A stretch of 64,000 bases of DNA from Psammoneis japonica (GCA_008632985.1 QPGO01000016.1:344840-408839); one strand, 5' to 3'; positions 5,619 through 64,000 are shown, numbered from the stretch's first letter. Made by a program: numbers and translations. The notes: generated from the letters alone by a model not told the origin.

Positions 5619-5823
5619 ATCTATCCAGAATGACTATTCCCGAAGCTTAGGAACTACGTAACAAATGTCTAGGAAATCCCGCCCTCTTACTGTACGTGAA
5701 ACGCTCTGCCAATTCCGATATGTCAGACTCGATATCTTATTGCAGGATTCGGATAGGGGCGAGCCATGCAGAATCAAATAATATGTACCCTCTCTTTACG
5801 GAATATCTTATGCCGTTAGCAGT

Positions 5824-13950: not shown

Positions 13951-13959
13951 AGGTTTTGC

Positions 13960-16345: not shown

Positions 16346-16514
16346 GCAAATGCAACTTGGACAGCTGGCGGTTTTGATCACAAAAACAATGGTCCTCTGG
16401 TGCTCAATTGACAATGAGACCTGGTGCACAATGCACGTGCCAGGGCGACTGCATGACGCCACACACGCATGGACAATGCGCTGCTCATGGGGGGGGGGGG
16501 GGGGGGGGAATCGA

Positions 16515-17045: not shown

Positions 17046-17419
17046 CCACCTGTGAGTTTGCATTATTTATGAAAGTCTCAGGAGAGTCATTTGTTAAATC
17101 AACAAATGACTGTTGTAGGTCATTTCCTGGAATGTTCCAGACATTTGACCGTCAAGCGGGAAAGTGTTCGCGGATGCCTTCAACTTGACGTCAAGCAGCT
17201 AAAATCTAAACGAGGCATAAATCTGTGTTAGTACAATAGAATTGATTCGGGGAGCACAACATATCCGCGACTTCTATTCTCTCGACTCGAGCATCCACAA
17301 TACGAGGCTACAGCATAGCACTGCATGTCTGAACTGCATGACCTTTGACTGCTCCTTCCCCAACATCAACGAACGACAACGCCATTGAAACACTAATCCG
17401 TTTGCACTTCGAGCAGAAA

Positions 17420-30633: not shown

Positions 30634-31562
30634 CACGGGATCCGCGGATGCACCAGGGGAATCTGCGAAATGCGGGATGAAAGGGGAAAAGGGGCAAATG
30701 TGAATGGTGGAAAAGTGACATGCTATTATTTTACCTTGAGGGACCCTTTAGTCAGCCAAACACGCTTGTTACCGATTTGACCCTCGTAGGTCCGTCCTTT
30801 CGGGGGTCGTTAAATTGTGAGAGCAGACGCGGTCTCGAGAAATAATTTTATATATTTTATTAGACCATTAATATTATATAAATCTGAAAACGACACACAT
30901 GAAAAAAGTGAATTTTCAACTTTATATAACCTACATAGCCAAATATATTATATAACGATTAATCCTCAAGACGCGTCCCGTCACAACATTTTGACACCCC
31001 CCATTAAGGCGGGTCATCCCCCACTTTTTTTAGCTCGAATTTGGCCGAATAGCTCGTGATTTGCATGATTTTTCTTGAATTTCACCGTGCTTCACCGTGG
31101 TGAAAACATCAAGCCATAAGTCTGTGACGGAGGTGGGCCGTGCGTCAACTTTCATTTATTTTATGCTTGTTGTGTATCTAAGGTCACATATACATCAAAT
31201 GTTTGCGCACGGACAACTACGTTTTTTGGACTTATGTCGATATTACCGTCATCGTCGTGCTTCGATCACGGTGCCTGATGTTCTCGTTTTCGTGCGCGAT
31301 CGGGGGTGAATGTAAATAATTTTTGTATTCAAAAATAAACACTATAAATATCCTTATTCAAATGCCACGATAATTTCTAGGATAAACGCGGGGATGACCC
31401 GCCTTAAGACGGACCTATGATGGTCAGATGAGAAATGTGCGTGTTCGGCTCACTAAAGGGACCCTTTTAAGGCACAATGATAGCCCCTCACTTTCCCACC
31501 ATTCCCATTTGCCCCTTTCCCCTTTCATCCCGCAATTCCCAGGTGCACCCGTGGATCCCGTG
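30634..31562. mobile_element. Non-autonomous piggyBac-like foldback element with TTAA TSD
   Basis: TTAA|CACGGGATCC at 30630-30643 and GGATCCCGTG|TTAA at 31553-31566. Imperfect inverted repeats of about 160 bp span 30634-30797 and 31408-31562. Confidence 0.8.
31008..31403. mobile_element. Nested MITE with perfect 14-bp TIRs flanked by TTAA
   Basis: ttaa|GGCGGGTCATCCCC ... GGGGATGACCCGCC|ttaa. A second, mutated copy lies at ~48230-48631. Confidence 0.85.
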
Positions 31563-42377: not shown

Positions 42378-42999
42378 GACGACACAAGAGGGAGTGCTGA
42401 AACTGAAAATCAATAGAGGAGCAGACTTATGCAGTGACAGAGGCTTTCAATACAGTAGTTCTTGCTTTGATATAAGACACAACAGAGCAAGATACAGCGG
42501 GTTGGCAGGCACTCGCATGCCATGGCGAGTGACGAGTGATCATGATGCCGCATTGGCTTTCTGCGCGCACGCGGCACGCGAGCAACACTTTTTGCCACTT
42601 TCCAACTTCCTCTCTCTCTTTTTTTCGAAAAACGAGTGAAAAACGGGAAAACGTGTTGCCAGCGCGGCGCTTTTCCAACCGTAACTCGCAATGTGAAACC
42701 AGCATTTCATTGCCATCATGCCATGACTTGTGTAGATTCCACAGTGTCAGATGCAATCCAAGATGGCACACAGGAGGTGTTTCCTGCTCTGGGGCGCATC
42801 ATGTGGGGAGCCAGTGGGCGAAAGGGAGAGCCAGGCACCATGCTTGCCAGCACCATCGCCCCCTGCCAGAGCATGCATCGCAGCACTCTTTCGGTCATTT
42901 CCCTGCACAAAACAAATGTGCTGACACATGGCACAATGGCAATTTGTGAAGAGATGAGCAGTGCCAGTGTGACAACTCAGCTGTTGCTCATGCTCAATG

Positions 43000-45800
43000 T
43001 TGTCACAATGCAAGAGCTGCCCTTTTGCCGTGTGCTGCTGCCGTTGCCGTCGGCAGCATTGCTGTCCTTCATGACACCACAAGTTGCTCATTGCCAATCA
43101 TCTTCATGAGACATTGACCAACTCAAGGAATGGCCACAAAAAAAGAACAAGGACAAGTGGCTCCAAGAGAATGCCGGCAGCACTGAAATCCTCAGAATCA
43201 CCGCGGATGACAAAAAGGCACTCCCTGAAGAATTCTCTGTCTTCATCAAGTGCAAAAACAAAAAAGGAAAGTCGTTTGCGAGGAAGGCATCAAATTCCTT
43301 CAAGAGACTGCCCAAGCACCCCATTGCATCAATCGAAGCAAAGAGCAAAGATGCGCTGCGTTCATTGTTGGACGATCCTGACATCAACTTCGTTGAGGCA
43401 AATCACAAGATGCGTGCATTGCAGCCATTGGACCATTCCACAAAGCCATTGTCTCCCAAGGAACGAAACTGGAGTCTTGTGGAACTTGTCAGGTGCGGCG
43501 TCAAACTGGTTCAGGTGGACCAGATGTGGAACATTCCAAGAAGCTCTTGACAAGCAGCAAACATGACAGTGTGCGTCATTGACAGTGGCCACACATTTGG
43601 ACATCCAGATCTCCTGACCAAAGGTGTCACTGGGACAAATGCAGGAATCAGTGATTGGAAGGTCAATGATTGTGGGCATGGGTTGCATGTGTGCATGTTG
43701 CTTGTGTTGTTGTTGTCCCAATTTCCTGAAAGAGATTCCTTCTCTCCACCATCCTTTTGAATGACGGATGCTCAGACAGTCCCGCTCATGCCTGTTGACT
43801 TGTGCTTGCCCTTGCCCTTGCAGGTGGCAGGAACAACAGCAGCACTCAGAAACAACAATCTTGGTGTCAGCAATGTCCTTGGAAACTCAAATGGTTTCAA
43901 CCTGCATGTTGGCAAGGCATTGAACAACAGAGGTGATGGCTCTGAATTCTCCTGGTGTTGAAGGCCCTTGACGGATGCATGGCGGCAGGTTCAATGGTCA
44001 CAAGTGTGAGCATTGGGGGTCCAAGAGCAAGTGACCTGACCTGCAATGCATTCCAGAAGGTGCATGATGCCAGTGCCTTGCTTTTGACTGCATCCAGCAA
44101 TGCTGGTGACACTGCACATTCTTTTCCAGCCTTGTTCTCTGATGTCATGTTGGTGTCTGTAGTTGGAGAAGACAAAGACGTTGCAACTTTTGCCCAGCAC
44201 AATGACCAGGTGGAGATTGCTGCTCCTGGTGTCCACATTTTGTCTGCAGTCCCTGCATCTGGGGGACAATGCAGCATTGGTTCCTGGAGTGGTGCGTGTG
44301 TTGAAAGCCAGATGGACCAATGTTGTGGTGCGCCTGCACTGTGCCCTTCTTCTCTTTCTTCTTTCCACCAGGTGCAAGCATGGCAACACCTTTTGCAGCT
44401 GGCATTGCTGCCATGGTTTGGTCTCATTTTGAAGATTGTGCTGATCACCAAATCAGGAATGTTCTGATCTGAACCCACAAGAGACTTGGGAGAATCAGGT
44501 TGCGGCCACGACACCGGTTTTGGTGTTGTGCAAGCAAAGGCTGCGCATGATCTTTTGAAACGTGAAGAATGCACAGCAGGTGGTGAGTCTCCACAGCCAC
44601 TTTCAAAAGGAGCCGTGGGTGGTTGCCAGCAAGACCCTTCCTGTGCCCAGCCTCCCACTCCATCCCCTGCAGAGTTTCCACGTGACAAAAAGGTTTTCGT
44701 GCTCAATCTGACAACAGATGAGTGGGGCGAGGAGACCTGTTGGATGCTCATGAATTCAACAAAGGGCATCATCAATTCGGGGTCACATCGTGAAGCAAAT
44801 AAAACACACACCACACAGCTCTGTTTGCCCCTTGATGGCTGCATCTTCACCACAGAAGACACAGAGGGTGTGATGGAATCTGTTGCAAATGTGGAAACAG
44901 CAGCCACTCCCTGCACTTTGATGGGGAGCTTGAGAAAACTGGTGGCAAATTTGGAAGCAGGGAAGCAGTCAAGTTTGGTGCAAAAAGATCGTCTGACAAT
45001 GTTTTGTCCAAAGATGGTTCACCTCCCATGACTGGGATGCCAACTCCTTCACCTTCAAGCCCACATGTGCCCAACTCAAAGATGCCAAATCAGTCAATGG
45101 TTGATGGATGTGCAGATGATCCATTTTGGATTTTCAAGACAAAAAGAGGCATTGACAAGCCATGCAGATGTTTGAAATCCAAATCTGTGTCAAGATGCAA
45201 GCTGCTTGGCAAACGTGCAAACGGGGACCCAGCACATGGGATTGAAGGTTGTCCAGTCACTTGTGGGTCCTGCTCAGAACCGGGTGCAACTGACACAGTT
45301 TTGCCTTTGCCAAAACCGGCTCTGCCACTCTCTCCTGATTGCTCATCAACAATGACATCATCAATTCAGCCTGCAGCACCACGGACACTTTCCCCCTGCT
45401 CAAAGGCAAATGGTGCTCCCAACAAAAGCTCCAACATCATCTCCAACATCTGTGCCAATGATTTTGCCCACACTGTGACCAACATCTGCTCCAACGTTGG
45501 AGCCAGCTCCAGCAGAGCAAAATGTGGAATGTCGCAATGGCCCACTGGGCTGCTGGCACGATGCTGATGGAGAGCAGCACAACTGCAAATGGCATGGACA
45601 GGATGACAATTGTGAACAACATGGGACCTTCTTTGAAAACTTTGGTGCCATCATGATGGACGCCTGCTGCACATGTGGTGGCAGCCAAATGGTTGCAAAG
45701 ACTGTGGGTGCAATTTTGCTCCCTGCAAGGCCACCCACATCATCCCCAATGCCTTGGCCTGCTTCACCAACTTCAACTCCAGCATGTCAGCCTTCTTAGT
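43000..45800 (+). pseudogene. Subtilisin (S8) serine protease pseudogene
   Basis: Catalytic-triad remnants VCVIDSG..GHPDL (Asp), GHG/VAGTTAAL (His region) and SMATPFAAGIAA (Ser), plus NDQVEIAAPGV and DTGFGVVQAKAA. The C-terminal region has LTTDEWGEETCW and GDGICC. Frameshifts and TGA stops are present. Confidence 0.85.
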
Positions 45801-45867
45801 TGCCAACCATGCCTCCAACAAGCAAGCCAACTTTGATGCCTGTGAAATGTCTGGTTTCAACCCCACT

Positions 45868-46384
45868 TGCTTGTGAAAGCCACAATGGCAAAGATTTTTG
45901 ACTTTGCAATGTGGAGGGGGGAACTGCATGTTCAGCCTGTGTTGAGAGCTGGATGGTGACAGCTGTGACGATTGCTGTGAGTCCCGAGGGGGGCACGTGT
46001 CTGTCCTTGGAAACTGCAGCTGGCTGGGGAGTCTCATGCTGAGACACAGGTGGAGGGTCCTGCCGTGACAGAGTTCACAGCAGAATGTGCTCATGCTCCT
46101 TTGAGAATGCCCAGGTGAAACGACCGGTTTCTACCACATTTGCTTGTGAAAGCCACAATGGTGGAGATTTTCAACTTTGCAACATGGAGGGGGGAACTGC
46201 ATGTTCAGCACATGTTGAGCTGGATGGCGACAGCTGCAACGATTGCTGCGAGTCCCGAGGGGGGTCATGTCTGTCCTTGGAAACTGCAGCTGACCGGGGA
46301 GTCTCATGCCGAGACATGGGAAGAGGGTCCTGCCGTGACAGAGTCCACAGCAGAATGTGCTCGTGCTCCTTTGAAAATGTCCAG
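45868..46384 (+). repeat. Direct tandem duplication (period 273 bp) of a Cys-rich coding module
   Basis: tgcttgtgaaagccacaatgg at 45868 and 46141, with near-identical sequence through cagaatgtgctc.tgctcctttga. Confidence 0.9.
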
Positions 46385-47029
46385 AAACGACAACTGCACC
46401 AACACATGGATGTGCATGGAGGAGGAAACAGAGTGCTCCACATGCATCAAGTCACCAAGCAGCAGCTGCGATGATTTTTGTGAGCAACAAGGCGCAACCT
46501 GTGTTTCTGCCAAGAGAATCTCTGGCAATGAACCCAGCTGGTGGGGTGTGACAGGTGGCATGCATTTTGCAGAGAGAGTGCTGGGGATGGCTTCCTTTGC
46601 ACATGTCCATTGCCACAATCATGAAACCCAAGCCAAAGAAGCTCTGCATGCACAAAGCTCCTCTCTGAAGTGAAGCATGAGACCACAAAATGCCACTCGG
46701 CAGCTGCAGTGGGTGCTCTTCTATGATGTGCAGCTTGTCTGTTTCAGCTCAAATCACAGCACATTCTTCACAGTTTGCAGGCCCAATCATCTGTGATGCT
46801 CGCCGCACCCAACATTTTAAAATGACAAGAACATGCTTGACAATGCTCAACAGGGAGTCAACAAATTTTCAAGATGTCTGCTTCTGCCAGACGTTGCTCT
46901 TCCTGGTGTGTCAACCATTCCAAAACGCACGTGCACCTCGACCAGTGGAATGACGTGCGCCATTGAACAAAGGGCTCACAACTTGGACTGGCTCTGAGCC
47001 ATGGCTTCAGCAGCCTCCTGGGCTTCCTT

Positions 47030-48100
47030 CCTTTTCGCTTCTGACATGTTGATGCGGAACATCAGGGTCAAACGATCCACCTCCATGCTGACAGGGGCAG
47101 CCTGGATTCCGTGATTTGATTTGCAGTTGTGTGCTTGCCGCAAGGCTTGGTGTTGATCCAGGTCACTGTCATTCCCTTCTTGGGAGCAATGACAGTTTCA
47201 GTCTCCATGCAGGGAAAGAAGATGCTGGCACCACCATTGCTGAGGCACAAGACAGTTGTGGTGGTGGCAGAAGACTGGTTGTGATGGTTGACATTGTGGC
47301 ACATCTTGGTGGGTCCACAACCGGGCTTGGCACACTGGGCACACATGCAGTCCTGCTGCTCCTCTTGGCTTGGCCAGAGGGTGGCAATTTCATCCATGAC
47401 TCGACCCACCAATTTAATGTCATCCTCGTGACTTGCAGACATGGAGAAACGGAAGCATTCCTTGTCTTTGAGGTGCTTGTGAGAGACTCCAGCACAACGT
47501 CCAAAGAGCTCCACATCATCTCCAGCACAAAGGATGGCATCCGTCAACTCATCAATCACCTTGTCATCAAAAACGCTGGAAATGGTCCAGATTCCAGGGT
47601 CTTGGGTGACAAGCTCAGATTGAGCAGACTCCTTGACGTGTGGATGCATCCAAGGAGCAATGGTGTTTTCTTCATTCTTGGAGTCAGATCCTCCAAGACA
47701 ACGATGGTCGATGCAGCACTGTTCGCAGGTGACGCACTTGGACATGTCCCCACCACAGAATGACCTCAACTTGTTGCCAAGCAGTCTCCGGTCATCAAGC
47801 TCATCTTCTGACAAGAGAGCAAACTTCAAGTCACCAAGCAGGTGACATCATTCTGAGCAGCATTTGTCGCAGAGCCACATGTCCCCACTGCAGATGCTCG
47901 AACCAGGGCGGCACTCTGGACACCACTTGTTGAACAGAAGGCAGGTGGCATGGGGGCAAAAATGCCAAAGAAACCCATCTTTGTTGAAGTGTCAAGGCCC
48001 GGAGGGTTGCAACACAGTTCTGGCAACAAGGTTGTGTTCAAAGCAGCTGTCTGCATGTGAAAGTTGAACAGAGGACTGAGCAACTCGTCGTTCACCAGAA
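47030..48100 (-). pseudogene. Prolyl 4-hydroxylase-like 2OG-Fe(II) oxygenase remnant
   Basis: LVTQDPGIWTISSVFDD and TTVLCLSNGGASIFFP...VIAPKKGMTVTWIN resemble the P4H pattern T.L.YL....GG.T.FP....V.PK.G.A..W.N. Confidence 0.55.
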
Positions 48101-48229
48101 GATCCTGTTTTTTCCGTCAGCGTCATTTCTGCTGAAAGGAAGAATTGAAACAGTGGCGGGTCAATTCTTGTGTGCACATTGATGCATGAAGTCGAAAATG
48201 TGTGGCAATGCTGCACATGCAAATGTTCA

Positions 48230-48631
48230 AGGGTGGTTGGTTGCTGCTGTTTTTAGCTTGAATTCGGCTGAATGGCTCATGTTTTGCATCGTGATTCTTC
48301 CTGAATTTCACCGTGCTTCACCGTGGTGAAAACAACAAGCCACAAGTCTGTGATGGAGGAGGTCCGTCTGCCAACTCTTGTTCATTTTATGTTTGTCATG
48401 CATCAAAGATTGCACACACCTGAAAAGTTGGCAGATGGCAAACTGCATTTTTGAGAAACATCGATGATTGTCATTGTCATCATGCTTTGATTGCAGTGCT
48501 GATGGTTCTCATTTTTGTGCACAATTGGGTGTGACTGTGAACAATTCTTGCACTCAAAAACAAACACTGCAAAAAACCTCATTCAAATGCAATGGCAATT
48601 TTGGGGGATGGGCAAGGAGATGACCCCCCTT
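48230..48631 (+). mobile_element. Mutated copy of the 31008-31403 MITE
   Basis: It shares tgaatttcaccgtgcttcaccgtggtgaaaaca and is collinear to the gatgaccc TIR remnant. Confidence 0.88.
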
Positions 48632-49299
48632 CTTGAGACTGAACAAAGATGTTTTTTGAGCTGCAGATTCCCGCGCAAATGATGAATGAGGTTCATCCCT
48701 TTTTCATCACATGAAGGAACATCACTGCTTTTGGATCACACAACCATGGTGAGGCCAACATCGTCCTTGCATGCTGATGGGTGTGGTTGAAAAAGATGCT
48801 GCTGCTGAAGCAGCGTGTCATTTGGTCGTCCACTGTCACATCATGCATGCCATGAAAGACATGGATGACAGTTCAAAAAAGGCACCAAAGAGTTTGGCCA
48901 CTTTTTTGCTCATCTCGACAACATGACTTGCATGGGTGATGAGCACTCAACACAAGTCAACGACCAAGTCAGGGGCATCAGTTTTTGGGCAGATGGACGG
49001 CATTGGAGCCATGGATGATGCCAAGCATGTTTCATCAAATTTTGAGCAGCAACTAAAAATGACATGTCTGTTGGTGTGTGTGCTTTTTGCAGCAATCTTG
49101 GGTGCTGCTGAAGCCAATGAGCAAGCATTGCTGGGACACATGGGTGGCTGGACATGTTTCTCAACAATTGGCCAAGAGCAGTGTGCCATGAGCAGTTTGT
49201 GTTCTCAACAGCGGGTGACTGTCAATTCAAACCCTGCGATCCTTGTGGTGAGTGCACCATTTTTTTAATTTGCTGCACAGGTGGTTGTTGGGTGAAACA

Positions 49300-51950
49300 T
49301 CTGGCACGTGTTGTTTCATTCCTGTGGCTGGGAGTCACGTTTTCCAATGCACGCTTCTGCGGGATCAGCATCGCTGCGGGGACAGCCTGCAGACACAGGA
49401 AAGCAAGTTGCATCATTGGTGGCTGCAGTGGGGATGCCTGCTGCATCCCAGTTTCATCATCAGGTCTGAGGAATGACAAAACATGAAAAAAATGCAAACT
49501 TGTCAGCCACTCTTGTCTCATCGAAATGGCTCTGTCAACCAAGCACGATTTGCCATGCAGCAGCAATGCCACACGCCAGCAGCATCGCAAAGAGCATGAG
49601 CAAGAAGGAGAGAAATGGCTTTGCAAATGATTTTCATCTTTTTTGTTCAAGATTTGGCTCAATGCTGTTTTGTGGACCTCAAGTGGATGAGACTCAACAG
49701 TGGCCAGAGAGACACTCGACTCTTGTTTTTCATTTTGAGACTCTTTGTCACAACACTTTTTAATTGCCGGAATCACAAAAACAACTGTTCAAACAGACAT
49801 TTCAAAGACTTTTAAACCACCAGCAGAAAGCTTCCAGTTGACTGCTGTGCACAATTGTGCAATCTGATGTGGAATTGGCATTTTTTGTGTCTGCTTTTGG
49901 GGTTCTTTCCTGGGGTTTCAAAAAACACATTCCAGATGGGATGAATTGATGTGGTCTCAAGTTTTGGCTCAGCTTCCTCATGCGGTGCTTTCTTTTTGCT
50001 TCCATTTTACTGCCAAAGCACAAGGCAGTGTGAGACACTGGGTCCCACATGTTTCCTGAGGCAACCAGTTGCATTTGTGGTCATCGGGGTTGTGGGTTTT
50101 GTCACCAGGGCAGTCACATGCCCAATGAAAGTGGTTCACTTGGTTCTGAGCACACACTTTGCATTGCTGTGCCAATGCACAAGAGCCAAGAAGTCCATCA
50201 GAAATGCACACACAAGGGTGGGTGCAATGACACTTTCTTCACTGCCTGTCCAGCAAACACCCAGGTGCACACGGGTTCTTTGCTGCAATTTGTGGAAACT
50301 CCTGAGTGGCGCTGCTTGGAGCTGTTGGTGACCACAGTTCCTGCGCTGAAAACCTGTCAGCAACTTTGTCCTTTTGCTTCCCAGCTTGGCAACTTTGGAA
50401 GATGACAGGTGCACAGAGGCGACATGTCCCAAGATCAGCCAGGCTTCCAGCTGGTTCCCGGCAGCCTGCTTCATGCACGACAATTCACTGACCGCAAGTT
50501 CATGTGCAAATCTCTCATTTTGGGTCACCTGGGTTTTGCCCATGTGTGGGAGCATGCCAACCACAAAGTCTTCTCAAGGAGGCAGGTGTCACAACAGCAA
50601 GTGCCCAAAGTGATCTCCAACATGCAACAGCTCTCCACACAAATGTGCTGCTGGTGGCAACTGCTTTCCGCCTCAAGCTTGCCATCATGTTGCTTGCCAG
50701 GTCTGCAGGCACCATTTTTCTTTTGCATGGTTGACCAACCATGAACTTAAGGCAATTCCAGCTGCTTTCATGAGAGAGAGAAGTTTTTGGGGTCATTTTG
50801 ACACTCAACTCAAAAACAACATTGCCAAATCTGTGGGGTGATCTGGGTTTGCTCGCACAGTTGGTTTTGCACTGCTTGGGTTCATTTCAGCAACCTTGTG
50901 CATCAACTTTTGAGTGATGCATCAAGACTTGCAAAATCTTTTGAATGCAACAGGCCCACATTTTGGGGTGGAGTGTGCCGCGATTCGACATTTTCTTCTG
51001 CACACAGAGAAGCCACATGTGATCTGCTTTCTCACATTGTTGTCAACATTGGCAGCACTGCTTTTGCAATGTCACAATCAAAGTTTTGTTAAAATGGCTG
51101 CATGCCATCATGCAACTTGCACACAAAAATGGCAGTCGATGCTCAACTCTGCTCGCAGATCAGCAAACGGAGTTGCTTTGCCACATGTCTCGCAGCACGG
51201 GAGCTTTTGTCACCCCCAGCTTGAAAGCAGCTGGCGCTCTTTGAGAAAAAGAGTGCACTGTCTGATTTGCAATGTCCCAAGATCCCAATGAACAAGTCTT
51301 TTGATGGTTGGGAGCTTTTGTCAAAACTTGTGAAAACTTGCATGAAAACAAACAAAACTTCGATCTCAAGATCAGAAGCCTTTTGTGTTGCTGGTGCGGC
51401 GCAGCTGGTGGCGGAGCAATTAAAAAAAAAAATGGAAAAAGAAGAGCAGCCACCTGTTTTGACACACTGCAGCAGGTCTTGTTGGTGCACCAAAGCATTC
51501 CCAAGTGAGTGAAAATGTTGTCCTCTGTTCAATCGCTGCATGTGCTGGCCGCCAAAAATTGTGTGGCTGCACCCACAGAAATGTGTTTTTTGAATCATGC
51601 ACACGTGGTGCTGCTGAGAAACCTGAAACACATCTGCTGCTGCTGCTCTTGTGATGCACCACAATGCCATGACTTGCATTTTGCCATTTTTTTCTCTTGC
51701 CATTTTTTTCTCTTTTGTTGGGAGCAAAAAACTCATGGAAAACATCGATGCTCAGCAACTTGGCTGGTCCTCTGTTTTGCCATGGCTTCTCTTGTTGGTG
51801 TGGCACAACACACCAAGAACCAGACCATCAAACTGACCTCGGGTTCTTCTTCTTCAACAGAAGAATTGCTCGGAGGAGTTGAGGAGGACATGGTGTGGGA
51901 CAGTTTCACAGAGACATGTCCATGCAGGTCAGAGTGCGCTCTCTTGGTGC
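49300..51950 (-). mobile_element. Possible degenerate hAT-like transposase remnant
   Basis: Minus strand ~49500-49620 reads PFLSFLLMLFAMLLACGIAAAWQIV..SHFDETR, loosely like the hAT dimerisation motif FP.L..LA......A..ERVFS. The support is weak. Confidence 0.3.
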
Positions 51951-52230
51951 CGAGCTTTTCTTGTGCCGGGTCCCGTGTCGCCGCTGGGAACAGTCTGTTG
52001 CCGCAAAAACAAAAATTTAAAAACATGTGACTAACGGAAAATGCCAAAAATGCCATCTACAAAGCTTAATACTTTACAAATAGCATATAAAAATTCATTC
52101 ATGTTTATGTCAGTCTTGTTTATGACATAAATATCGGGAATAGCTCGGCGTTTTCAATGTGCATGATCGATGATCCGAGTAAGTACGGTGTGGGGGCTGT
52201 CAACGTTTTTCTTTTATGTATTGTTGCTGG

Positions 52231-52648
52231 CAGCGTTATAAAATCGTTAACTTTCTCCCAACAATCACGGATTGCAACCATCGATTGCGCGCGGCTTCGC
52301 AGCAATCGAAAGATCGCAACACGCGCGCGCTTGCCACGTGCAACAATCGATTGCAATCCCGATCGCGATTGGCCCCCGCGCGGAATTCGCGCGCCCCACG
52401 CAGGGGCGCCCCACGCATTTTTCGTGAATGAACACCACGTTTCGGTCAATTTTTAGTCCCGTGTGCGCTGAAAATCCCGATTCACGACTAAATTTTAGAC
52501 ACGAATCGATCGCGATCGATCGCGAACGCGATTGCGATCTTTGTGACCAGCGCCAGACAAACAATCAGCAGATTGCAATCATTTCGATCGCGATCCGCAA
52601 TCGAATTGCAAACAGGATTGCAATCGAGTTAGCGATTTTATAACGCTG
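52231..52648. mobile_element. hAT-type MITE with 22-bp TIRs and 8-bp TSD, unmutated and CpG-rich
   Basis: TIR CAGCGTTATAAAATCG(T/C)TAACT at both ends and TSD GTTGCTGG at 52223-52230 and 52649-52656. The interior has CGATCGCG/CGATTGC subterminal repeats. Confidence 0.92.
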
Positions 52649-52685
52649 GTTGCTGGTGAGAGCTGCTGCTCATTTTGACCTTTGA

Positions 52686-53288
52686 TTGATCGAGTCATTC
52701 TGCCAGTCTGTTGATCTGGACGAGGACGTCATGTCTATCAAGGAAGATGCAAAATTCTATTGGGTCAGGTGCTCCGACGGAGTCTGCCTGGCCATGAGCG
52801 AGGAAAGGTTGGAGCGCATCTTTGATCTCATGCCGACGCTTCGGTATCTACTCGTGGGACACCCTATATGAAAGCAAAGGAGCCACGAGAACTCCCGGAT
52901 GGTACTCTTATCCTCGATATTCCCAGTGAGTTAAAGTTTCGCAAAAGGCGTTTTTGCAATTGATCAATTGCATCTTGGAAGTAGAGCCTCTTCCCCCTCG
53001 TGTAAACCAGAACGATGACAACAGTAGTTTGTCGATGCTGACGCATACCATGGCCACTTGGGTGGATGCGAGGTTCTCGAACAGCGTCTCAAGGATCATC
53101 ATGCTAACCCTTTGACTCCTGAAGAGGATATCAACAACGACTACGATTGGCACGTTGTGGGAATGGAGGACACGGGTGACATCCGAACGAACGAGATGAC
53201 TCAACTTGCCGACGCCGGATACACATGCACCAAAAGCACTTTCGATGGAGTCACGGTATCCCATCTCTATCGAAAGAAACGTGGATAA
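52686..53288 (+). CDS. Possible small hypothetical gene (frameshifted fragments)
   Basis: Two collinear ORFs (52686-52871 and 53058-53288) have protein-like composition in normal-composition DNA. Confidence 0.3.
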
Positions 53289-54399
53289 CTGCTTGAACTT
53301 TGGGGGTTGCGTGTCCTTTGGCTCCTGCGATTGAGCTCTGTGGGGGTAATAAAGCGCGAGAATACCTGTTGTCTCAAGTTCCAATTTAGCTATGTAGATG
53401 CCGGACGTGGTGGAATAGTAGCACTATCTTAGCATGATTATGTACGCCTTAGAAATCACAGATGTGGATCACAAGGTGGTGCATCTGTTCCAGGGCTTGA
53501 TAAGGTTATCGTGTATCACGAAGACTTGAGAATGCTAGCGAGATTCTCCTTTCAGCCCGGCACTGCTCAGTGCCGGTAGAACTTTGCATTTGGTCGATAA
53601 AAGTGGTGAAGTCGCTATAACCACGGTGCCTGCATTGAAGACGGAAGGCTCCGCCCGATCAGATGGCAAAGGAAAGGATCATGCTCGCAGCACCTTCTTC
53701 AACCACCACCCCCAGAGATATTTCCATGCTTGAGGCAGAGTCAAATGGTTTCTTTTAAAAATGTTCTTCTTACTGTTTGCTGAGAAACGGTGCTCAAAGC
53801 TGTAAAAATCAACAACTCCCTTTCAACAATTCCTCAAGGATTCAAAACTGGAACAATGACAACTTTCTCTAGCCTGGTCCTTCTCAACGTAAGCCTCTTT
53901 TGCATTTCTTCACCGCCAATGAGAAAAAAACTCAACTCAAAACAGAGGCACTCCACACCACAAATGGACAACTGTTTTGCATGACAGCTTTTTTCTGCTG
54001 CCAGATTTTGTGTCATTGGTGTGATGAGCAAAAAGAAAAAGACCAGCAGATGGTGGCAACTCTGTGGGTTGAGTCTTGGTTCTTGGATGAGCAAGAACAG
54101 GGAGCTGGGATCATTGGCAAGCCTCATCTGCATCCTTGCTGATTTTTTTATGCGCCAAAGAATGCATCAACCAAAAGGTCACCTGTGCACTTTGTTCTAC
54201 TTGCTGACATTGAGCAACTCCTGACTGAGTTTGAAGCTTTTCAGCTGGAGCATGCTCCATCTGTCATTGACAGTCTCAACAACTGGGACATTTTGTCTTT
54301 TGTCACAGTGTGGAGTGGCCAAAAAGGAAGCGTGAAAGTCAGACAATTTGGGGAAGTTAGTCCAGGGTGGTTTGGGAGGTGGAGGTGGAACAGAGAAAA

Positions 54400-55345
54400 A
54401 GAGCTGTTGTTGTGGGAGCAGTGACCTAAAAGGAAGGTGCAGAAATGATGGTGTCCAGCACTGCCCACCAAGTGATGGAGGGTGAAGGGGAGAAAGAAGA
54501 AGCCAGCTTTGTCAACAGCAGCAATGGCAGAAGAGCCATTGGCAAAAGCAGTGTTGCATTGCTGAAGTTTGTCCAGCAGGGCACTCCTCAGGTGAGCTTT
54601 GGCAAGAAGGTTGGGAGACAAGCAAACCAGGTGCAGGGCAGGAAAGAGCTGCAGGAACAGTGACATCAATGGCAAGGATGGGACAGTGACATTTGCAGCA
54701 GGAATGATTGCACCAGTGCTCTCTGTGTGCAGTGTTGGGCTTGAAATTGTTGCTGAAGCTGCAATTTTGTTGGTCAGGGACTGTCTGCCCAGATGCACAT
54801 GTGATGAGTTCATGTGTGCCATTGTCATCTGGCAGTGCATTGTGGATGACAGACAATGCAGCAGGATGAAAGTGGGTCATGCAGACAGAAAATGAGGGGT
54901 TTGGGAGAGGGACAGAGTGGCAAGGTGTGTGTGCAATTTGGTCAAATGGTGGGCAAGTTGATCAGGCAGCAAGGGACCTGTTGGCCACAAGACCAAGGCT
55001 TTGGAGGTGTTGCTGGAGTGGGGCTTGGTGGGAGGCCAAAGCGGGTTGCTGAAAACGCATCCTTTCACTGCAAGGAGGATCCCTGGAGGCAAGCATTGGG
55101 CACAGGTGCATGCAGCGTGGGCAGCTGGGGGTGCTGAAAGGAGGGCTTGGGCTGCCCAGCTGTCCAAGGCAGAGCAGGAAGGGATGGGGTGGTTTTGGTT
55201 GCAGCAGCAAACTTGCTGTGGGTTTTGTGATTGCTTCTGAACTTCTGCTTGGTGCTCACATTGTGTGCACCCTTGGCAAAAGGGTCAAGAGTGTGAGCAG
55301 ACCAACTGCTGCACATGGTCAGACTGCGTGCAGATGACAGTCAGA
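54400..55345 (-). mobile_element. Degenerate non-LTR (RLE-type, CRE/R2-like) retrotransposon 3' part; probable 5' part at ~60850-61400
   Basis: LAIDVTV ... AH ... FLPFT ... G.AG...FL resembles the C-terminal restriction-like endonuclease, and TCASGQ is a zinc-knuckle remnant. 61230-61260(-) reads FRFCCPVHP, like an N-terminal zinc finger. Confidence 0.45.
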
Positions 55346-58300
55346 TGTTTTAGATTGACAAGCAGATCTCTCTGAGATCTGCTTCTCTCACTCTTTCTTG
55401 TCAGTGCATGCGTTGTCACTGTTGCCAGGTTGCAGGGAGGACCCTTGCACTTGTCATCACTCTCAGCCACCACCATTCTGACAGGTCATGGCCCTGCAAG
55501 GTTCGCATTTTTTTGCACTGCAGTCCTCGCTGTGATCCACTCAATTTGTGAGCCAATCAAGCCAGCATCATTTTTGATCCTGGCAGAGATGTTTGCTTGG
55601 AGCCAAGATGATTTTTTAGCCACAGGACAATGCTGTGCTGGCTTCTGCATCTGTTTGATCAAAAACAGTTGCAAAACTCCCACCATCTTGTCAAGATCAC
55701 CATGGTGTTCCAACCACACCCTCACTGCAACAAGGCTTCCAAGCACCTGAAACATCTGTGTGGTGGTTCTAAACCTGCAGAATCAAAAGATGGTGTCATT
55801 GATCTCACTCTCACAAGAGCACACCACCAATCACATGATCCCCCAGAGACTGGAGACCCCCAAGGACAAACTGCCAGTTGCAGCATCCCTCCATCAGAAG
55901 TTGCCTCTTGGGATCATGACTCCAGCCAGTGACTGTGCTCCATCTCATCTCTCTAAAGAGACAAATGCTGGATCACAAGATCAAGACTGCTCTCAAAATC
56001 TGCATCCCTGAAGGCAATCATTCAGATTGGTGCTGGACATGTCTGCTTCAGTCCAGACATGTGGCGTGCTTGTTGGGGCTGGAGTGAGTTTTCTGATGCA
56101 GCTTCCCCCCCCCAAGCATGCACCCAAGACCCCAGCATCATCATCTGCAGGATCAGGGTCAGCCAACATCTCTGATTTGATCAATGCACTGAGTGACAAC
56201 CATGCAACTTCAAAAAAAGCACCCCCCTTCTGGTGGGTGGCCACACATGTGTCACCCCTTCTGCACAACTGCAACTTTGTCATCCAAACATTTGTTGAAC
56301 CTGGATGCTCTGCCAACAAAGGACATCCACCAATGTTTTGATCACAAGTTTGCCAAAAGAGTGATTCCCCAGAACTCACTTGGGCCTTTTGATGATGGAA
56401 ATTTGTGCCATTTGGATGGCACAAACTGCCTCATGTTGGCTGATGGACTGCTGTTTGTGATGGATCTCATGCCAGACCACAAGGTGGCACCCCCTTGTGA
56501 GCCAAGTCTGTGTCATGACAACTTGCCACATGGCATGCACCAGTGGTGTCTGAACGTTTAGAGGCATGCAAGTGATTGTGGGTGCTGTGCTGCTCACCAT
56601 TGTGGAGCTTCGTGCACAACCACGGTGGTGACTGGGGCTTTGCTGTTGGAAACAAAACACTTCCAATGATCTCCCACAATGAGCGCAACACATTCATTGC
56701 CTTGAATCATTGTGCATGATTCACAAGCTCCTCTTGCACTCAGATGGCTTCCCCAAGAACAGCCAGCCATGTCACATTGTTGCCTCTTGCTGTTGCAGTG
56801 GGTGCAATTCATTGAAGCAGATTCCATGTCAAGCACACCCACCAGCATTCTGTGATGAAGTGCCCAGCTTGGTGGACTCACATCCAAAACAAGGCAACCT
56901 GTCAATCATGGACTGCTCAGTTCCATTCAATGATTTTTTGCAGCTCTGTGCCTTCATTTTTGACACTGACTTCTCTTTGGATGACAACCAAGTGATCAGC
57001 ATCTTTGTCAAGAATGCCAAGTGCTCTTGAAGTTCTCGATGTGTGTCACCAAGAATGACCGTGCATCTCCAGCTCATCAATGCAAGTGAACTGCAAAGCA
57101 AATTTTGAGCAATGAAATGTTGGTGCAAACAATGGTCTTCAAGTGTTGGATCCTCCTGAACCAGATCCCAATTCTCCAGACCTGGTCCCAGATGATGTGT
57201 TGGCTCCACATGACAACACTTTTGAGATGTCATGCAAAGAGTTGGAAGCAACAGATTCAAGATGTTCCTCCTGCAGATGACAATCATCTCCTGCATCATG
57301 CCCACTCAGCTTTGGTGCACAAGCTCAAGGCATTGGCTGCCAGCCAAAGCTGCCAAACATCCACGATGTTTTGTGTGTGGCTGCTGGCAATCATCTGTTT
57401 GATGATTGCCCCATTCTCCAGAATGACCCACATGTCAAGGGTGTTCACACTCAGCTCTGCCAATTTTTGAAGTGCAAGGCTGCTCAACATGATGCAACCT
57501 TTGCTGGCAACCAAGGTGACTTGCCTGCTGGACAGAATGGGCAGGCTGTCCTTCTGACTGAAGCTCCACTGCCAGGTTTGTGTGGGCCATTGCAGCTGCC
57601 AGCAGTTTCAGATCCATGATGCAGCCCATTCTCTCCTTCCTGAGACACAGCCAATGATGGTGTGGCAACTGAGAAAAAAGGACTCACAATTCTGTTGCCC
57701 TTCCACTGACACAAACCACTTTCTTCACATGTTGACATTGGCCAGAATCAACTCACCAGTCCTCTGACAAAACCTGTTGTTGCACAACTCTCCCTGACAA
57801 AAATCCCATGGGAGGGCTGAGGAAACTGTTGAGCTTTTCAATTTGGAGTGTTCCAAATGTTGCAAGGACTCAGGGTTTGCCATGCTTGACTCAATTTGAG
57901 TCTGGCTCTCCATCCATGCCACAGTGGATTTCACCAAGCTGAGCATCATGAAGCTTTTGAAGTCAATGCTGTCAATTTTTTGAATGATGAATGTGGTGTG
58001 CAGTTTGACACTGGGGCCTGTGTCTCCTGCACCAATGAGTGAGATCTCCTCTGCCATCATCAGGCAAATGGTGCCCCCAAAAATCCATGCCCATTCAAGG
58101 TCAATCCAGTGCCCAGACAAGCTGCTGTCCCTCACAGCTGCAGCTGTCTGTGTGCTCCAGCAGAAACCAAAGAGGGTCATGTTGCCATCCATGCATGCTG
58201 CCACCCCAAGCTGCAATTGACTTTGGCAGACAAAAATGCTTTTTACATGGCTGGTGGCAGGCACAAGCAAGATTTCATGGCAGATTGTTTGTTGAAGTTC

Positions 58301-60845
58301 CACGACCATGGTGCGCACAAGCATGTTGCAAAAGCATCACTTCCATGCCACTCAAGACACACTGTCCATGGTCAGCTGATTGACAGCAAGCACCTTGCTC
58401 ATCCCTTGATCCTCCCAGAATTGGATGACATGCTAGATGAAGCAGCATTGGACCTCAAGAGCACAGACCCTGATTTTGCCAAGGAATGCAACATGCTGGT
58501 GGTGCATGTGATTGATGCCTGCAAGGAAAATCAAGAAAACACCCTCATGGAGCAATGAAAACTCATTCCATGCACATGTTAAGATGTGCCTTTTGAGACT
58601 TGCCTTGAAGATCAAGCACCCATCCAGCTGCTCAAGGCCAGTGCAGAACACTTGCTTTGGCATCAACACCTCAGACATCCCAGTGACCATTGTTTGCACA
58701 ATGCACACAAATGCATCAAGGTTGCTCCCAAGTTTGCTCATGGCACTTCCCCTTTGTTGGACACTTGCCCTGCTTGCAACTGAGCAAAGCAGACAAAAGA
58801 CCCTGCCAGCCCCAACTTGATGCACTCAATGACTCAGCCATGCCAAGGTCCAATGGTGGATTTTGCCTTCTCTGGTGTCAAATTGAAGAATGAAGAGTGT
58901 GCTGTGGGGACCATGCAGGACTCAACAGTGAGACTTGTTGGGCTCCTGTTCATGACCGCTGCACCAGTTGTCTCCATGGTGCTGCTCATGTTTCCAAGGC
59001 CATGCCAATTGAATGCACCCATCATTTTTTGGAGGACCACTCACCACAATGTCAAGACAAATGTGTGGCTGTTGATCAAGGTGGTGATCAGCACAGAAAT
59101 CCAGCAGTGCAAAGACTTTTTGAGCAAGATTTTTGGCACACTGTGAGCCCTTCTCTGTCACAGATGCCTCCAATCAGAGTGGCATCATTGAGCACAGTTG
59201 CTCCACCATGCAGAACACAATCCAAGTCATGCTCATCAGAGCAGATTTGCTGGTCAAGTTTTGACCACCACATGCTTTCCATCATCATTGCACTCATGTC
59301 AAGAGTGCAGCTCCATTAAAAGATCAACATGTTGCTCCCATTGCTCTTGCCACAGGAAAGGCCAAGGACTTGGTGATGTTTTTTGCACATTTGGTTGCCA
59401 TGCACAAGCTTGCAAGAATGCCAAACACCCTGCTGTGATGTGCTCCAACTCCAAAAAGGGCATCTTCCTTGAGCACATGCTGGACAGACACTGCCAAGAG
59501 TGCTGTGTGGCATGACCCTGAGTCCAGCCTCATCAAGGTGGACAATCATTTTTGCTTTGACAAAGGCATGAATGCCCTTCCCCACAATCAAGCACTGCCA
59601 GATCATGTCATCCATCTTCAACTGACACAGAATGGCAAATCATTCCCAGCCAAGGAGAGGAAACTTCAATGGAAAAATTTCATTTTTCTGGTGTTCCCTT
59701 TGCCAAGACTCCAACACACACACTGCAACAGCCCACATCGGATCCAATGTGTGGCACCACTTTAAAGGTTGATTAGCTGTTTGATCTTGCACACTTGTCA
59801 CATGTCAAACATGGCAGTCCCATGGCTCACCTGCCCTTCAAGGCTGCTCAGAACAAGATCGTGGGTGGGTGCATTGGTTTGACCAATGGCACAGATGTTT
59901 TCACTCAGCATCATGCTGAAGCAGAGCTCCAAGAATGACTGCATGATTTGGGCACCCCTTTTTTCAAAATTGTTTTTGTGCTGAGGCAGCACTCCAATGT
60001 GCTTTGATTGAATCTGAGCTGCCCCCTCCCAAAGAGGAGCATGTGCCTTGACTGCAATGGCGGTTGTGCATGCTGTTGCAGCTTTGCATTTTCCTGATGT
60101 TGATTTCTCCACTTTGGATGATGTGGAGCCCAAGTTGTTGCCAACAATTGACAATGAATGTTGCACACTCAACAATTTTGTGATTTTGTCCCATGCTGTC
60201 ACCCCAGAGGAGCAGGCCTTGGATGGTTTTGCCCATGACAAGCTCAAGCATCAACTGCCCATGTGGGAAAAATGGCAGGACGAGCGTGAGCTCACTCAAC
60301 TTGACCATTTTCATGTGTTGGGAATGTTTGGGTGAGCCCAGGCACCAATCAAGCAACTGAAGGATGCTGCAATGCTCTGGCCACATTGGCGGTGCAATGG
60401 TGCTCTTGATGCTCTTGATGCTGTTGTGATGGACCCTCTGTGCTGCTCCTGCTTTTGCTCATCATGTGTGGAGCAACCCGCTCAACAATTTTTTTGCACT
60501 GTCAGAATTGATGGGTTGTGGAGTGTGCTCAAGCAACATCCAAGATGCTTGCACTCACTTGCCAAGTCTTTCGACTCCAGTGTGCACTCAGACAAATGAG
60601 GCTCGCGCTGCTTCGCATGAAAGCTGCTTTGGCATTGAGCTTGATTGACCCATGGCAGGACACACATGCAATCAAGATTTTTGATGCTGATGGCAAAACA
60701 CTTCACCAACCCATCAAAGACATGGCTCTGTTCAAGTGCCTTCTTGGACTTTGTGCTGGTTTCAGCAGCACCCACTCCAACCCGCATCACGGCACTGCAT
60801 CAGCTGCGTGTCACATCTGCGTTTGCCGGGCTCTCAAGTCATGAA
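55346..60845 (+). mobile_element. Degenerate Ty1/copia (CoDi-like) LTR retrotransposon, 3' truncated
   Basis: Putative LTR TG..CA at 55346-55483, then GGTCATGGCCCTG (copia PBS is GGTTATGGGCCCAG). Integrase-tail remnants FGC...SKKGIFLEH and HFCFDKGMN follow. RT remnants are ELTQLDHFHVLGMFG, LWPHW, CCDG, SSCVEQP and THAIKI. Confidence 0.8.
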
Positions 60846-61816
60846 GGTGGATTGATTCTTGAGCTGCTCCCCTCTCAGTTGAGCACACTTCCAAGTTGCA
60901 CTTGGACATTGGGCCTTTTGATGGCTGTCCAAAGCACAAGGAGCTTGCTGTGTGTTGGTGTGCTGTCACGGGGGAGAGCCAAAGGAGCAGCCACAGAGGT
61001 CCAGAGGGGGTTTGTTGGAGGATGAGGCACACCAGGTCATTGGTGGAAGTGTGCACGTGAGTGGTGAGGATGCAGCGGGCTTGCAAAGGGGCTTGGTTCA
61101 TGCATGTGGAGCAATTCCTGGGCAGGTGAGGTGGGCAGCTTCAGTGGGCGTGGAGGGTGGTGCCGTGAGTGTTGTGTCATGACAAGCACAGATGGAGAAG
61201 GAGCTGAAGGGCTTAAATGGTTGCTGGGGTGCACTGGACAGCAAAAGCGAAATGACCCGTTGGTAGTTGTCTCGGTCATTATTGGGTTCTCTGTGGGCAT
61301 GTCTCGTCTGTGGGAGGAAATGACTCGTCGAACATCATCGAGCACGGCTCGGGGGAGGAGCGGAGTGGTTCTTTGGAGATGTTCGATCGGTCATCGATCG
61401 GGTCATTGATCAGGGGGCTTCAATGGAGGGAAATAAAGGGCGGGCGACAAGCGACGGTGGCGGCAAAGGAAGGCGAAAGTAATGATGCGCGTTGTGGTGG
61501 TCTGGGGGCGGATCAGGGGGGCAGAGCAAAGTACGAGTGCGTGCTCTGTGATAGCTCTACTCTCTAGTAGCTAGAGCTCTATTCTACTCTCTTGCTCTAG
61601 AGAGTAGAGAGCGCCGTCATCATGGAGGGTCATCGCAATTCTGAACGGTCGAACGCGGCAATAGGAATCGGGGATACTTAAAAGAATTTTTTGTCCTCAT
61701 TCTGTAGAAGTAAATACTGTAGTTCGTCCGATGACCAAATTTTCATTTTGAAAGTTTGACTCTTTCAATTCCCCGAAGACCCATCATGAAACGCGACACG
61801 GCCAACAAAAAGCGTC

Positions 61817-62984: not shown

Positions 62985-64000
62985 TCAACTTGGCTCGGCT
63001 ACGTCCCAGCCGAGACAAGTCGAATTCCTGCCTGTTGTCGCCGGGTCAGCTCTACTCCGGAAGCAAGGTAGCACATGATGGTCCCACACCGGTCGCGGAG
63101 CCGTAGGGAGGAGCCGCGAGAGTGCTTGACGACTGCATCCATGCTTCAAACGCGAACATGTCAAAATTACTTTTCGCTTTTCGCGGGCTGATCGGGAACC
63201 GCCTGCAAGGCCGCTTTCATTGCCCAAGCCCTCCCCCGACAACACACCCACCTCAAGGACAAACAAACCCAAAGCACACTCTTCCAATGATGTGCTGTCA
63301 CTTCGATCACTCACCTCCTCACCATGGATGTTTGCTTCCAGTCCTCCAGCAATCTGGACCCATTCCACTGGGCCTCCTCCCCTTTGCCAACGCCGTTGTT
63401 GGTGACTCTCTCTGCTTTGTGCCCCACCCGACTGCCACCTCTTTGCCTCCTCCGACAACAGCTCAACTGACAATCTTCCTTCCAGCCAATCTTGGCAGTG
63501 TTGGCTGCCAAGGCATTCCCACCTTGGCTGTCCCCTTTTCCCTTTTATCTCCCTCACCCATGCTCTCCGTGGTGTTGCCAAACAGGGCGTGTTCTCAATC
63601 TGCGACCAGAGCTTTGAAGCACCACCCAGCCAATCCTCTGTTCTTTCCTTCTTGGACTCATTCTCAACTCTGCCTTCATCTCTGCACCATCTTCTGCCTT
63701 CTCTTCCCAACACTCTTTCAACTTGACTCCCGCAGTTGCTCTGTGCTGTCCTCAACCACAACCTCTGAGGCTTGTCTCAATGTGCCCCTTTTTCAATGCC
63801 ACCCACCCTTCAGCTGGTCCTTCTCTCCCCTCACCAGCCTTTGCCTCCACTCTCTTTCTTGAGCCTTCCCAAGTTGCTGCCTCTCATCAACTCAGTTTGC
63901 TCTTCTCCTCTGCAACTCTGCAACTCTGCCTCCCTGCCATTCCTCCCAGTCCATGGAACCTCCGTTTCTCCTGTGGACACTCCCACCCTGACCCCTTTGG
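62985..64000 (+). mobile_element. Probable 5' part of a degenerate non-LTR element entering a hypermutated domain
   Basis: C-rich strand. RFHCP resembles the FRFCCP segment at 61230-61260(-). TpA is almost absent after ~63170. Confidence 0.35.

Follow-up and report, generated by a model that had tools for sequence, protein, structure and literature searches.

Surviving TpA dinucleotides in four TpA-erased domains of a diatom genome were far from a chance sample of the sites once present: most stood in the context YTAR (Y, pyrimidine; R, purine), and their survival climbed with the length of the T-run or A-run abutting them. The domains lie in a stretch of 64,000 nucleotides of Psammoneis japonica DNA (GCA_008632985.1, QPGO01000016.1:344840-408839), which we call the window and within which all positions are counted from the first base. 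Survival depended on context and followed a dose-response with run length, the effect was repeated in three of the domains, the products of TpA loss were asymmetric between the strands, and in the one copy pair in which changes could be polarised the TA that were retained were those beside T-runs. This flank bias is probably, as far as the sequence allows one to judge, the substrate specificity of a process that rewrites TpA to TpG or CpA in the silent repeat DNA of the diatom, and we infer one enzyme that would read about three bases next to TpA.

The window contains four sharply bounded TA-erased domains that together make up 24.3 kb. They are listed here with their surviving TpA, run length being defined as the longer of the 5' T-run and the 3' A-run that abut the TA.

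D1, about 9000-15900, no strand: TA-erased domain; 19 surviving TpA, 9 in YTAR, 13 with a run of at least 2
D2, 42734-52017, no strand: TA-erased domain; 17 surviving TpA, 11 in YTAR, 12 with a run of at least 2
D3, 53891-61213, no strand: TA-erased domain; 15 surviving TpA in 7.3 kb, 12 in YTAR, 10 with a run of at least 2
D4, 63169-64000, no strand: TA-erased domain cut by the window end; 1 surviving TpA, at 63546 (tttTAt)

Five of the 19 survivors of D1 lay in its graded left edge (9068-9255). The survivors of D3 were at 54149, 54198, 54358, 54427, 55351, 55617, 55770, 55954, 56559, 58244, 58434, 58580, 59317, 59763 and 59774.

TpA dropped from 30-50 per kb outside the domains to 0-4 per kb inside them, CpG dropped to 2-27 per kb, with a roughly twofold rise of TpG and CpA. 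At the domain edges the TA count fell to 0-4 per kb over a few hundred bases, and the neighbouring DNA was normal. As strand-symmetrised observed/expected ratios (O/E), TA was 0.03 in the domains and 0.55 outside, CG was 0.22 and 0.96, and CA/TG was 1.81 and 1.20, a 1.5-fold difference; per kb of D3 the values were 0.00-0.07 for TA and 0.04-0.24 for CG, and CpG was less completely erased in D2 (O/E 0.19-0.40). Only these three of the ten strand-collapsed dinucleotide classes differed between the domains and their surroundings. The remaining dinucleotides stood at 0.86-1.19 times their outside value (GA/TC 0.86, CC/GG 1.03), with AA/TT at 1.21 in the domains and 1.16 outside (1.04 times) and AT nearly unchanged. 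Runs of 3-8 A or T bases were equally frequent per kb inside and outside, which bears out the statement in a preliminary description of this DNA, made from its sequence alone, that A-runs are not eroded. That only TA, CG and CA/TG frequencies differ argues against generic GC-biased gene conversion (gBGC) and against the plain WA pattern (W, A or T; that is, TA plus AA) of DNA polymerase eta (Pol eta), both of which the same description had disfavoured. We rejected gBGC because it favours all changes from A:T to G:C pairs, but AA/TT and AT were nearly unchanged and the A+T content was 50.6% in the domains vs 52.8% outside.

Survival of TpA depends on its flanks

The preliminary description had singled out TTA and TAA as the contexts of most surviving TpA in and around D3. 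Such contexts held 13 of the 15 survivors in D3, compared with 621 of 1515 TA (41%) outside the domains (Fisher p=7e-4), and 42 of the 52 survivors of all four domains (p=1.2e-8); the exceptions were as rare as had been claimed, being CTAC at 54198 and CTAG at 58434 in D3. To obtain survival per flank class, we estimated the ancestral number of TA as the YR total of that class (TA+TG+CA+CG) multiplied by the outside share of TA. The YR total of a flank class is unaltered by TA>TG/CA and CG>TG/CA changes, and is independent of base composition. Normalised in this way, the NTAN contexts were not equally but unequally depleted (G=89.9, 9 degrees of freedom, p=2e-15). Survival was 0.52 in TTAA, 0.20 in CTAA/TTAG, 0.06 in ATAA/TTAT, 0.04 in both GTAA/TTAC and CTAG, 0.03 in CTAC/GTAG, 0.02 in ATAG/CTAT and 0.01 in GTAC; no TpA survived in ATAC/GTAT (0 of about 138 estimated ancestral sites) or in ATAT (0 of about 62).

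These values showed that the rule as first proposed, in which the process simply disfavours TpA with a 5' T or a 3' A, was too simple. A lone flanking T or A, with no such base on the opposite side, was not protective, since it accounted for 3 of the 52 survivors vs 354 of 1501 outside TA (odds ratio, OR, 0.20), and neither TTAT/ATAA (7 observed vs 6.4 expected) nor TTAC/GTAA (5 vs 6.7) was enriched. YTAR, on the other hand, accounted for 32 of the 52 survivors vs 227 of the 1501 outside TA (15.1%), and RTAY supplied one survivor where about 292 ancestral sites were expected. Survival rose with run length from 1.7% at run 0 (10 of about 605) through 2.7% at run 1 and 14.7% at run 2 to 35% at run 3 and 32% at run 4, and it was about 100% at runs of at least 5 (9 vs 7.9 expected). 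Runs of at least 2 were found beside 36 of the 52 survivors vs 234 of the 1501 outside TA (15.6%; OR 12, p=4e-17). The domain counts listed above, to be set against these outside values of 15.6% for runs of at least 2 and 15.1% for YTAR, showed both effects in D1, D2 and D3 alike.

A logistic model comparing survivors with outside TA, summed over both strands and with 3' T as the reference, gave coefficients of +1.79 for 3' A, +1.82 for 3' G, +0.38 for 3' C, +0.92 for AA and +1.49 for AAA. The likelihood-ratio p values were 2e-16, 8e-8 and 2e-4, the last two being the gains from the AA and AAA terms. Because a 3' G (on the other strand, a 5' C) raised the odds of survival about six-fold above 3' T and so protected as well as a 3' A, the flank rule is not specific to T and A; it is to be replaced by YTAR plus an effect of run length, which per strand gives the order TAY >> TAR >> TAAA. 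In the position profile, the survivor signal was present at -1, -2 and -3 and absent from -4 outwards. Of about 41 estimated sites with a run of at least 3 and a pyrimidine across from it, 11 survived (27%), compared with about 6% expected if the run-side strand alone were protected (arithmetic from the one RTAY survivor in about 292), which suggests a smaller protective effect on the strand opposite the run.

Other descriptions of the run effect were tried and rejected. A generic purine-run (stacking) rule did not hold, the values for positions +1+2 being 0.32 for GG and 1.15 for AG vs 4.7 for AA, and a W-run of the AnTm type was a poorer predictor than a pure T-run (log-likelihood -172.7 vs -166.8). 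Exclusion of nucleosomes by poly(dA:dT) was rejected because runs of 2-4 already protected and single flanking bases mattered, and because the products were strand-asymmetric and the CpG survivors had no association with tracts.

The 323 CpG that survived in the domains showed no flank or tract bias, so the dependence on context is peculiar to the TA process. The survivor context was thus both far from chance and restricted to TA loss, in keeping with the enzyme-like specificity that had been suggested at the outset. The median distance from a TA survivor to a surviving CpG was 28 bases vs 32.5 for random positions (p=0.29); together with the unbiased CpG survivors, this indicates that the TA survivors do not mark patches spared from all change. 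The flanks of TG/CA sites inside the domains were unbiased, and the survivor contrasts held also against these sites. No pair of survivors had homologous flanks.

Products, copy pairs and surroundings of the domains

Since TG and CA were roughly balanced in most 500-bp intervals of the domains, both strands are attacked. In the RTAR/YTAY classes the excess of RCAR/YTGY was 611 and that of RTGR/YCAY was 339, with 477 TA and 472 CG lost. Given flank-symmetric CpG decay, products predicted from TAY outnumber the opposite products by about 375:103, or about 3.6:1, a ratio close to the rate ratio implied by the survivors; if CpG decay is symmetric, the A of 5'-TAY (equivalently, the T of 5'-RTA) would have been hit about 3.6 times more often. 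The asymmetry had the same sign in D1, D2 and D3 and was smallest where CpG loss was largest, and CpG decay is therefore not its source. After T-runs the excess was one of TG over CA, with 120 v 44 at run 2, 52 v 10 at run 3 and 24 v -3 at runs of at least 4, and the share of CA was no greater than that from CpG decay alone. This excess of TG indicates that the T ending a T-run, which is the A heading an A-run on the other strand, rarely changed base.

A C-rich tandem repeat at 13000-14500 in D1 had 28-43 TG vs 74-105 CA per 500 bases and a GC skew of -0.4; conversion there is nearly one-stranded, unlike in the rest of the domains.

The fate of individual TA could be followed in repeat copies, of which the first two below belong to a high-copy element of about 390 bp that the preliminary description had called a miniature inverted-repeat transposable element (MITE).

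31024-31405, + strand: unmutated copy of the ~390-bp element, outside the domains; 26 TpA in the aligned part
48247-48631, + strand: mutated copy of the ~390-bp element, in D2; TpA kept at 48254 (after T5) and 48388 (after T3)
12239-12567, + strand: repeat copy in D1; TpA kept at 12541 (aatTAaaat), where its paralogue at 9931-10241 has CA

The two copies of the ~390-bp element gave a blastn self-hit of 74.5% over 388 bp. Their 26 ancestral TA became CA in 13 cases and TG in 7, were kept in 2 and were otherwise changed in 4, and 20 CpG of the unmutated copy read TG or CA in the mutated one. Altogether 48 of the 101 mismatches were in TA or CG and 53 elsewhere, with just 2 A>G changes at AA. Both retained TA were those named beforehand, ttttTAg and atttTAt: TA after a T-run of at least 3 were kept in 2 of 2 cases and all other TA in 0 of 24, 20 of which had become CA or TG (1/325 by our own arithmetic). 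In the pair alignment, the mutated copy had no TA that was absent from the unmutated copy. The comparison of an unmutated with an in-domain copy of one element shows that the domains reflect mutation, not foreign composition. A loose-end consensus of further copies from read contigs also kept TTTTATG, with the neighbouring TA as TG (agreement 0.73).

Two CpG in a duplicated CACCGTG word were kept in both copies of the element (48300-48335 and 31105-31140, columns 96-113 of the pair alignment) while 20 other CpG decayed, and these may be protected or functional sites.

The public sequencing data comprised three runs from one sample and one study, as contigs; the short-read contigs of one run matched 48557-52260. 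Because these contigs were identical to the window over that interval, with no difference, the eight survivors located there are not assembly errors. Between the run contigs and the window there were 426 variant places, and among those listed the contigs carried TA or CG, from other copies or alleles, at points where the window reads CA/TG.

At 57490-57491 the window has TG and the sole read contig CA, a pattern seen 5-7 times per repeat pair examined; by its sequence this is probably one ancestral TA or CG resolved oppositely in two alleles or copies. Two contigs covered 46656-47840 in D2. One was identical to the window (depth 34); the other (depth 27) had 122 differing letters and 12 gaps in about 1.2 kb, and it may represent independent hypermutation of a second allele or of a close paralogue.

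Contig depth was 1100-2780 over the ~390-bp element (47708-49009) and about 970-19000 at 55340-55400, where a short inverted-repeat sequence lies close to 55379, vs 40-130 nearby; both are very high-copy elements within erased domains. Metagenome contigs, scanned with the conserved core of the ~390-bp element, gave no matches. Among 129 open reading frames (ORFs) of at least 90 aa in the domains there were five weak Pfam matches, none at the curated cut-off, and no transposon family was assigned; the signs of mobile DNA in the domains were one high-copy element and raised contig depth. Rfam gave no match in the whole window at its gathering thresholds.

Outside the domains, the window is gene-dense eukaryotic DNA with long intronless ORFs, which include a phosphoglycerate kinase, a PhoD phosphatase, an MscS channel, a WD40 protein, a proteasome subunit and a cyclophilin. 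The best named relatives of the phosphoglycerate kinase were all from diatoms, at about 80% identity. The island of 1.9 kb between D2 and D3 (52018-53890) had normal TA (O/E about 0.5) and the highest CpG of the window, 80 per kb at 52001-53000 (O/E 1.46); its contig depth was raised, with maxima of 514 in X1 and 394 in X2, it carried several indel variants, and neither its seven ORFs in Pfam nor its sequence in Rfam gave a match. Just beyond the right edge of D1, at 16522-17041, lies a tandem repeat of about 170 bp whose units differ at TA/TG, CA/CG and CA/TG sites and which may be a partly mutated border zone.

Proposed specificity and rival explanations

We propose that the process would hit the A of 5'-T-A-Y-3' fastest (which, on the opposite strand, is the same event as a hit on the T of 5'-R-T-A-3'), that a 3' purine would slow the hit about six-fold in odds, and that an A heading an A-run (TAAA, or, read as the T ending a T-run, TTTA) would rarely be hit. 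Both strands would be attacked about equally. With both strands open to attack, a TpA would survive only when it makes a poor substrate in either strand reading, and the survivors left would be YTAR, chiefly T(n)TA/TA(n)A and TTAA. The chemistry could be deamination of adenine by a deaminase like TadA/ADAT or oxidation of thymine by an enzyme like TET/JBP, in either case followed by mispairing; adenine and thymine as the attacked base cannot be told apart from sequence.

Several points weigh against this proposal. The ancestral TA content was estimated from neighbouring genes, which may differ from repeats, and at runs of at least 3 the survivors plus the inferred products exceeded that estimate. 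The numbers are small, with 52 survivors and a single polarised copy pair of 26 TA. In that pair the orientation of the products fitted the TAY rule in just 8 cases to 6, which is not significant, and its CpG products were RTGR/YCAY in 8 cases vs RCAR/YTGY in 3, which shows symmetric CpG decay to be an assumption; this opposite lean would enlarge the TA asymmetry, although the numbers are too small to judge. The product asymmetry was weakest in D3, where the product difference per lost TA, (P-Q)/lost TA, was 0.31 vs 0.83 in D1. Position 55051 is TG before AAAA in the window and TA in the only contig there, and represents either a change at a position that the rule disfavours or a fresh TA created when the run was extended. 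The context rule is one of sequence.

Run-flanked TpA could be new rather than retained, made during or after erasure by run-lengthening substitutions such as TTTTCA>TTTTTA and TGAAAA>TAAAAA; the lengthening of homopolymer runs is a known misalignment bias of polymerases. Such an origin would suit the survivors at runs of at least 5, whose number (9) exceeds the estimated ancestral 7.9, the contig TA at 55051, and four sites that resemble an A-run broken by one T (14804, 15498, 15776 and the 44800 region). Both run-flanked TA of the ~390-bp pair, however, were already present in the unmutated copy, and no extra TA had arisen there despite 53 other mismatches; at the TTAAAA site of the D1 pair one copy has TA and the other CA, and the consensus of the other copies retains TTTTATG beside a TA turned to TG. 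We modelled new TA as arising through one substitution, of whatever kind, in the domain sequence as it now stands, context-blind and with transition weights of 1-6. This model expected runs of at least 3 in 5% of new TA and YTAR in 25%, compared with 25 of 52 (48%) and 32 of 52 (62%) observed. Run extension would also leave unexplained the enrichment of CTAA/TTAG without runs, the near-absence of RTAY and the asymmetry of products at run-free sites, and we regard a new origin of the run-flanked TpA as quite unlikely. We find it extremely unlikely that the bias was inherited, in the sense that the repeats, unlike the coding control, had most of their TA in TTAA and T-run contexts even before they mutated. 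The control is indeed gene-dense DNA in which just 56 of 1515 TA are TTAA, and the unmutated MITE copy, with 2 TTAA among 26 TA, has about twice the outside share. An inherited bias would nevertheless require context shares to shift 8- to 100-fold, and the effect was intact after normalising by the domains' own invariant YR totals; the flanks of TG/CA in the domains were unbiased, A/T runs were as frequent inside as outside, and 24 of the 26 ancestral TA in the ~390-bp pair had no run of at least 3, of which none was kept.

The mechanics of DNA might instead determine which TpA are lost, if the base most easily opened or unstacked were the one taken and A-tract structure suppressed opening of the abutting pair. 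Protection climbed stepwise with run length, a dose-response in keeping with the long-lived A:T pairs of A-tracts, as given in the relevant part of PMC5393899, and the 27% survival at one-sided runs of at least 3 with a pyrimidine on the other side, vs about 6% expected, would fit as well. The products at runs, however, were strongly strand-asymmetric, so that the two bases of one pair behaved differently; a T before the A was absolutely required, with AA, CA and GA steps untouched; and at positions +1+2 GG was not protective (0.32) whereas GA was (1.9). Nearest-neighbour duplex stabilities, taken as general background and not computed, do not rank the contexts in the observed order. We therefore consider an explanation by mechanics unlikely. 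A further explanation is error-prone repair synthesis by an enzyme like Pol eta, whose main error is A>G, with dGTP inserted opposite T after a T primer end and the efficiency of extension setting the 3' context. The preference of Pol eta for mutating 5'-WA motifs, with TA as a hotspot, is in its favour (PMC9723645, in the part concerned with this motif). WA includes AA, yet AA/TT stood at 1.04 times its outside value and A-runs were intact; moreover, 97% erasure of one dinucleotide, with 53 ordinary vs 48 TA/CG mismatches in the pair, is unlike a broad low-fidelity spectrum, which makes this explanation very improbable. The substrate rule proposed here, in which the process would read about three bases beside TpA and act per strand, excludes ADAR-like, plain Pol eta and gBGC explanations. 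It explains which TA words persist in hypermutated DNA, including TTAA target sites and TAAA-type signals, and the survivor fingerprint could help to find the mutating enzyme.

Comparison with known systems

Our literature search on loss of TpA in diatom or other transposons returned only papers on fungal repeat-induced point mutation (RIP) and one preprint on Bigelowiella natans. RIP, in Neurospora and other ascomycetes, resembles the present process: it too is directed at repeats, makes transitions at a specific dinucleotide and inactivates mobile DNA, with a footprint left in composition. RIP converts CpA to TpA and enriches TpA. Here, in contrast, TpA was destroyed and CpA/TpG enriched (TA O/E 0.03 vs 0.55, CA/TG 1.81 vs 1.20), and C>T change at CpA was rejected as the cause because its direction is the opposite.

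The natural substrates of TadA are tRNA loops. TadA/ADAT enzymes and the base editors derived from TadA share with the present process a T before the target A, only TpA having been lost here. To our knowledge a run-length effect is not known for TadA, and in this, as well as in a 3' T as good as a 3' C, the present process differs from it. The preferred TadA motif is UACG(A)/TACG, with the target A preceded by U or T, in the passage of PMC8052359 that treats it; this would fit a T before the A and a pyrimidine after it. TACG was among the most fully erased contexts in the domains, with one surviving strand-reading vs about 6 expected by our own arithmetic (173 outside readings). Hits before 3' C and 3' T appeared equally fast, and both faster than before G and A, which is compatible with the TadA motif but not specific to it.

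Adenosine deaminases that act on RNA (ADAR), whose substrate is double-stranded RNA, likewise convert A to inosine, read as G, and have 5' U as their best neighbour; the preferences given in the section concerned of PMC11276115 are U>A>C>G on the 5' side and G>C~A>U on the 3' side. A 5' A is thus nearly as good for ADAR and a 3' G is preferred, whereas in the domains AA was untouched and a 3' G protected. Because ADAR accepts a 5' A and prefers a 3' G, it does not fit, and ADAR-type editing was rejected on the near-constant AA/TT, the intact A-runs and the six-fold higher odds of survival with a 3' G.

The oxidised thymine 5-formyluracil can pair with G and would give T>C. A homologue of TET/JBP in dinoflagellates places 5-hydroxymethyluracil on repeat DNA and prefers single-stranded, nucleosome-free DNA, and older work cited in the same article found thymine to be replaced preferentially in TA and TC (PMC11572971, in the portions that describe the enzyme and its background). 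The likeness is that transposon DNA of an alga of the Stramenopiles-Alveolata-Rhizaria (SAR) group is marked on thymine; the difference is that those portions report a modification, not a mutation footprint, and that TC was barely affected here (GA/TC 0.86 times), with no gain of CC/GG (1.03 times). A search for literature linking 5-hydroxymethyluracil, dinoflagellates and TpA found none. By analogy with this system, thymine oxidation would be a live alternative to adenine deamination.

The closest counterpart is a hypermutation restricted to TpA that strikes integrated DNA of giant viruses and virophages in Bigelowiella natans (Mettrop et al., bioRxiv 10.64898/2026.01.13.699255). As its main text describes, A:T>G:C change is there limited to TpA, giving TpG/CpA, is confined to discrete silent or foreign regions, and leaves a long-term footprint in which TpA is low while CpA+TpG is high; de novo events occur at about 1000 times the background rate, and an ADAT2-like adenine deaminase is proposed as the mutator (bioRxiv 10.64898/2026.01.13.699255). 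In the window, likewise, 20 of the 26 ancestral TA of the polarised pair became TpG/CpA, and the change ended at domain edges. The systems differ in host, a chlorarachniophyte there and a diatom here, and in what is observed: the preprint's main text reports de novo events in mutation-accumulation lines and a 1.8-fold depletion of TpA, whereas the domains present an end state with 97% of TpA erased and CpG lost as well. That main text, supplements apart, holds nothing on bases beyond the dinucleotide, whether as context, flanking sequence or tri- and tetranucleotides. A TpA-erasing mutator of silenced DNA, opposite to RIP, is known, in the literature searched, from one 2026 preprint on an unrelated alga. 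It is possible, although rather doubtful, that the flank rule is the footprint of a natural DNA adenine deaminase, or thymine-modifying enzyme, that serves diatom defence and is old, SAR-wide and the same as the Bigelowiella system; if so, the rule would be a ready assay read-out by which to pick the enzyme among candidates. For the published Bigelowiella de novo mutations, and for candidate enzymes in vitro, the substrate rule makes a sharp and cheap prediction.

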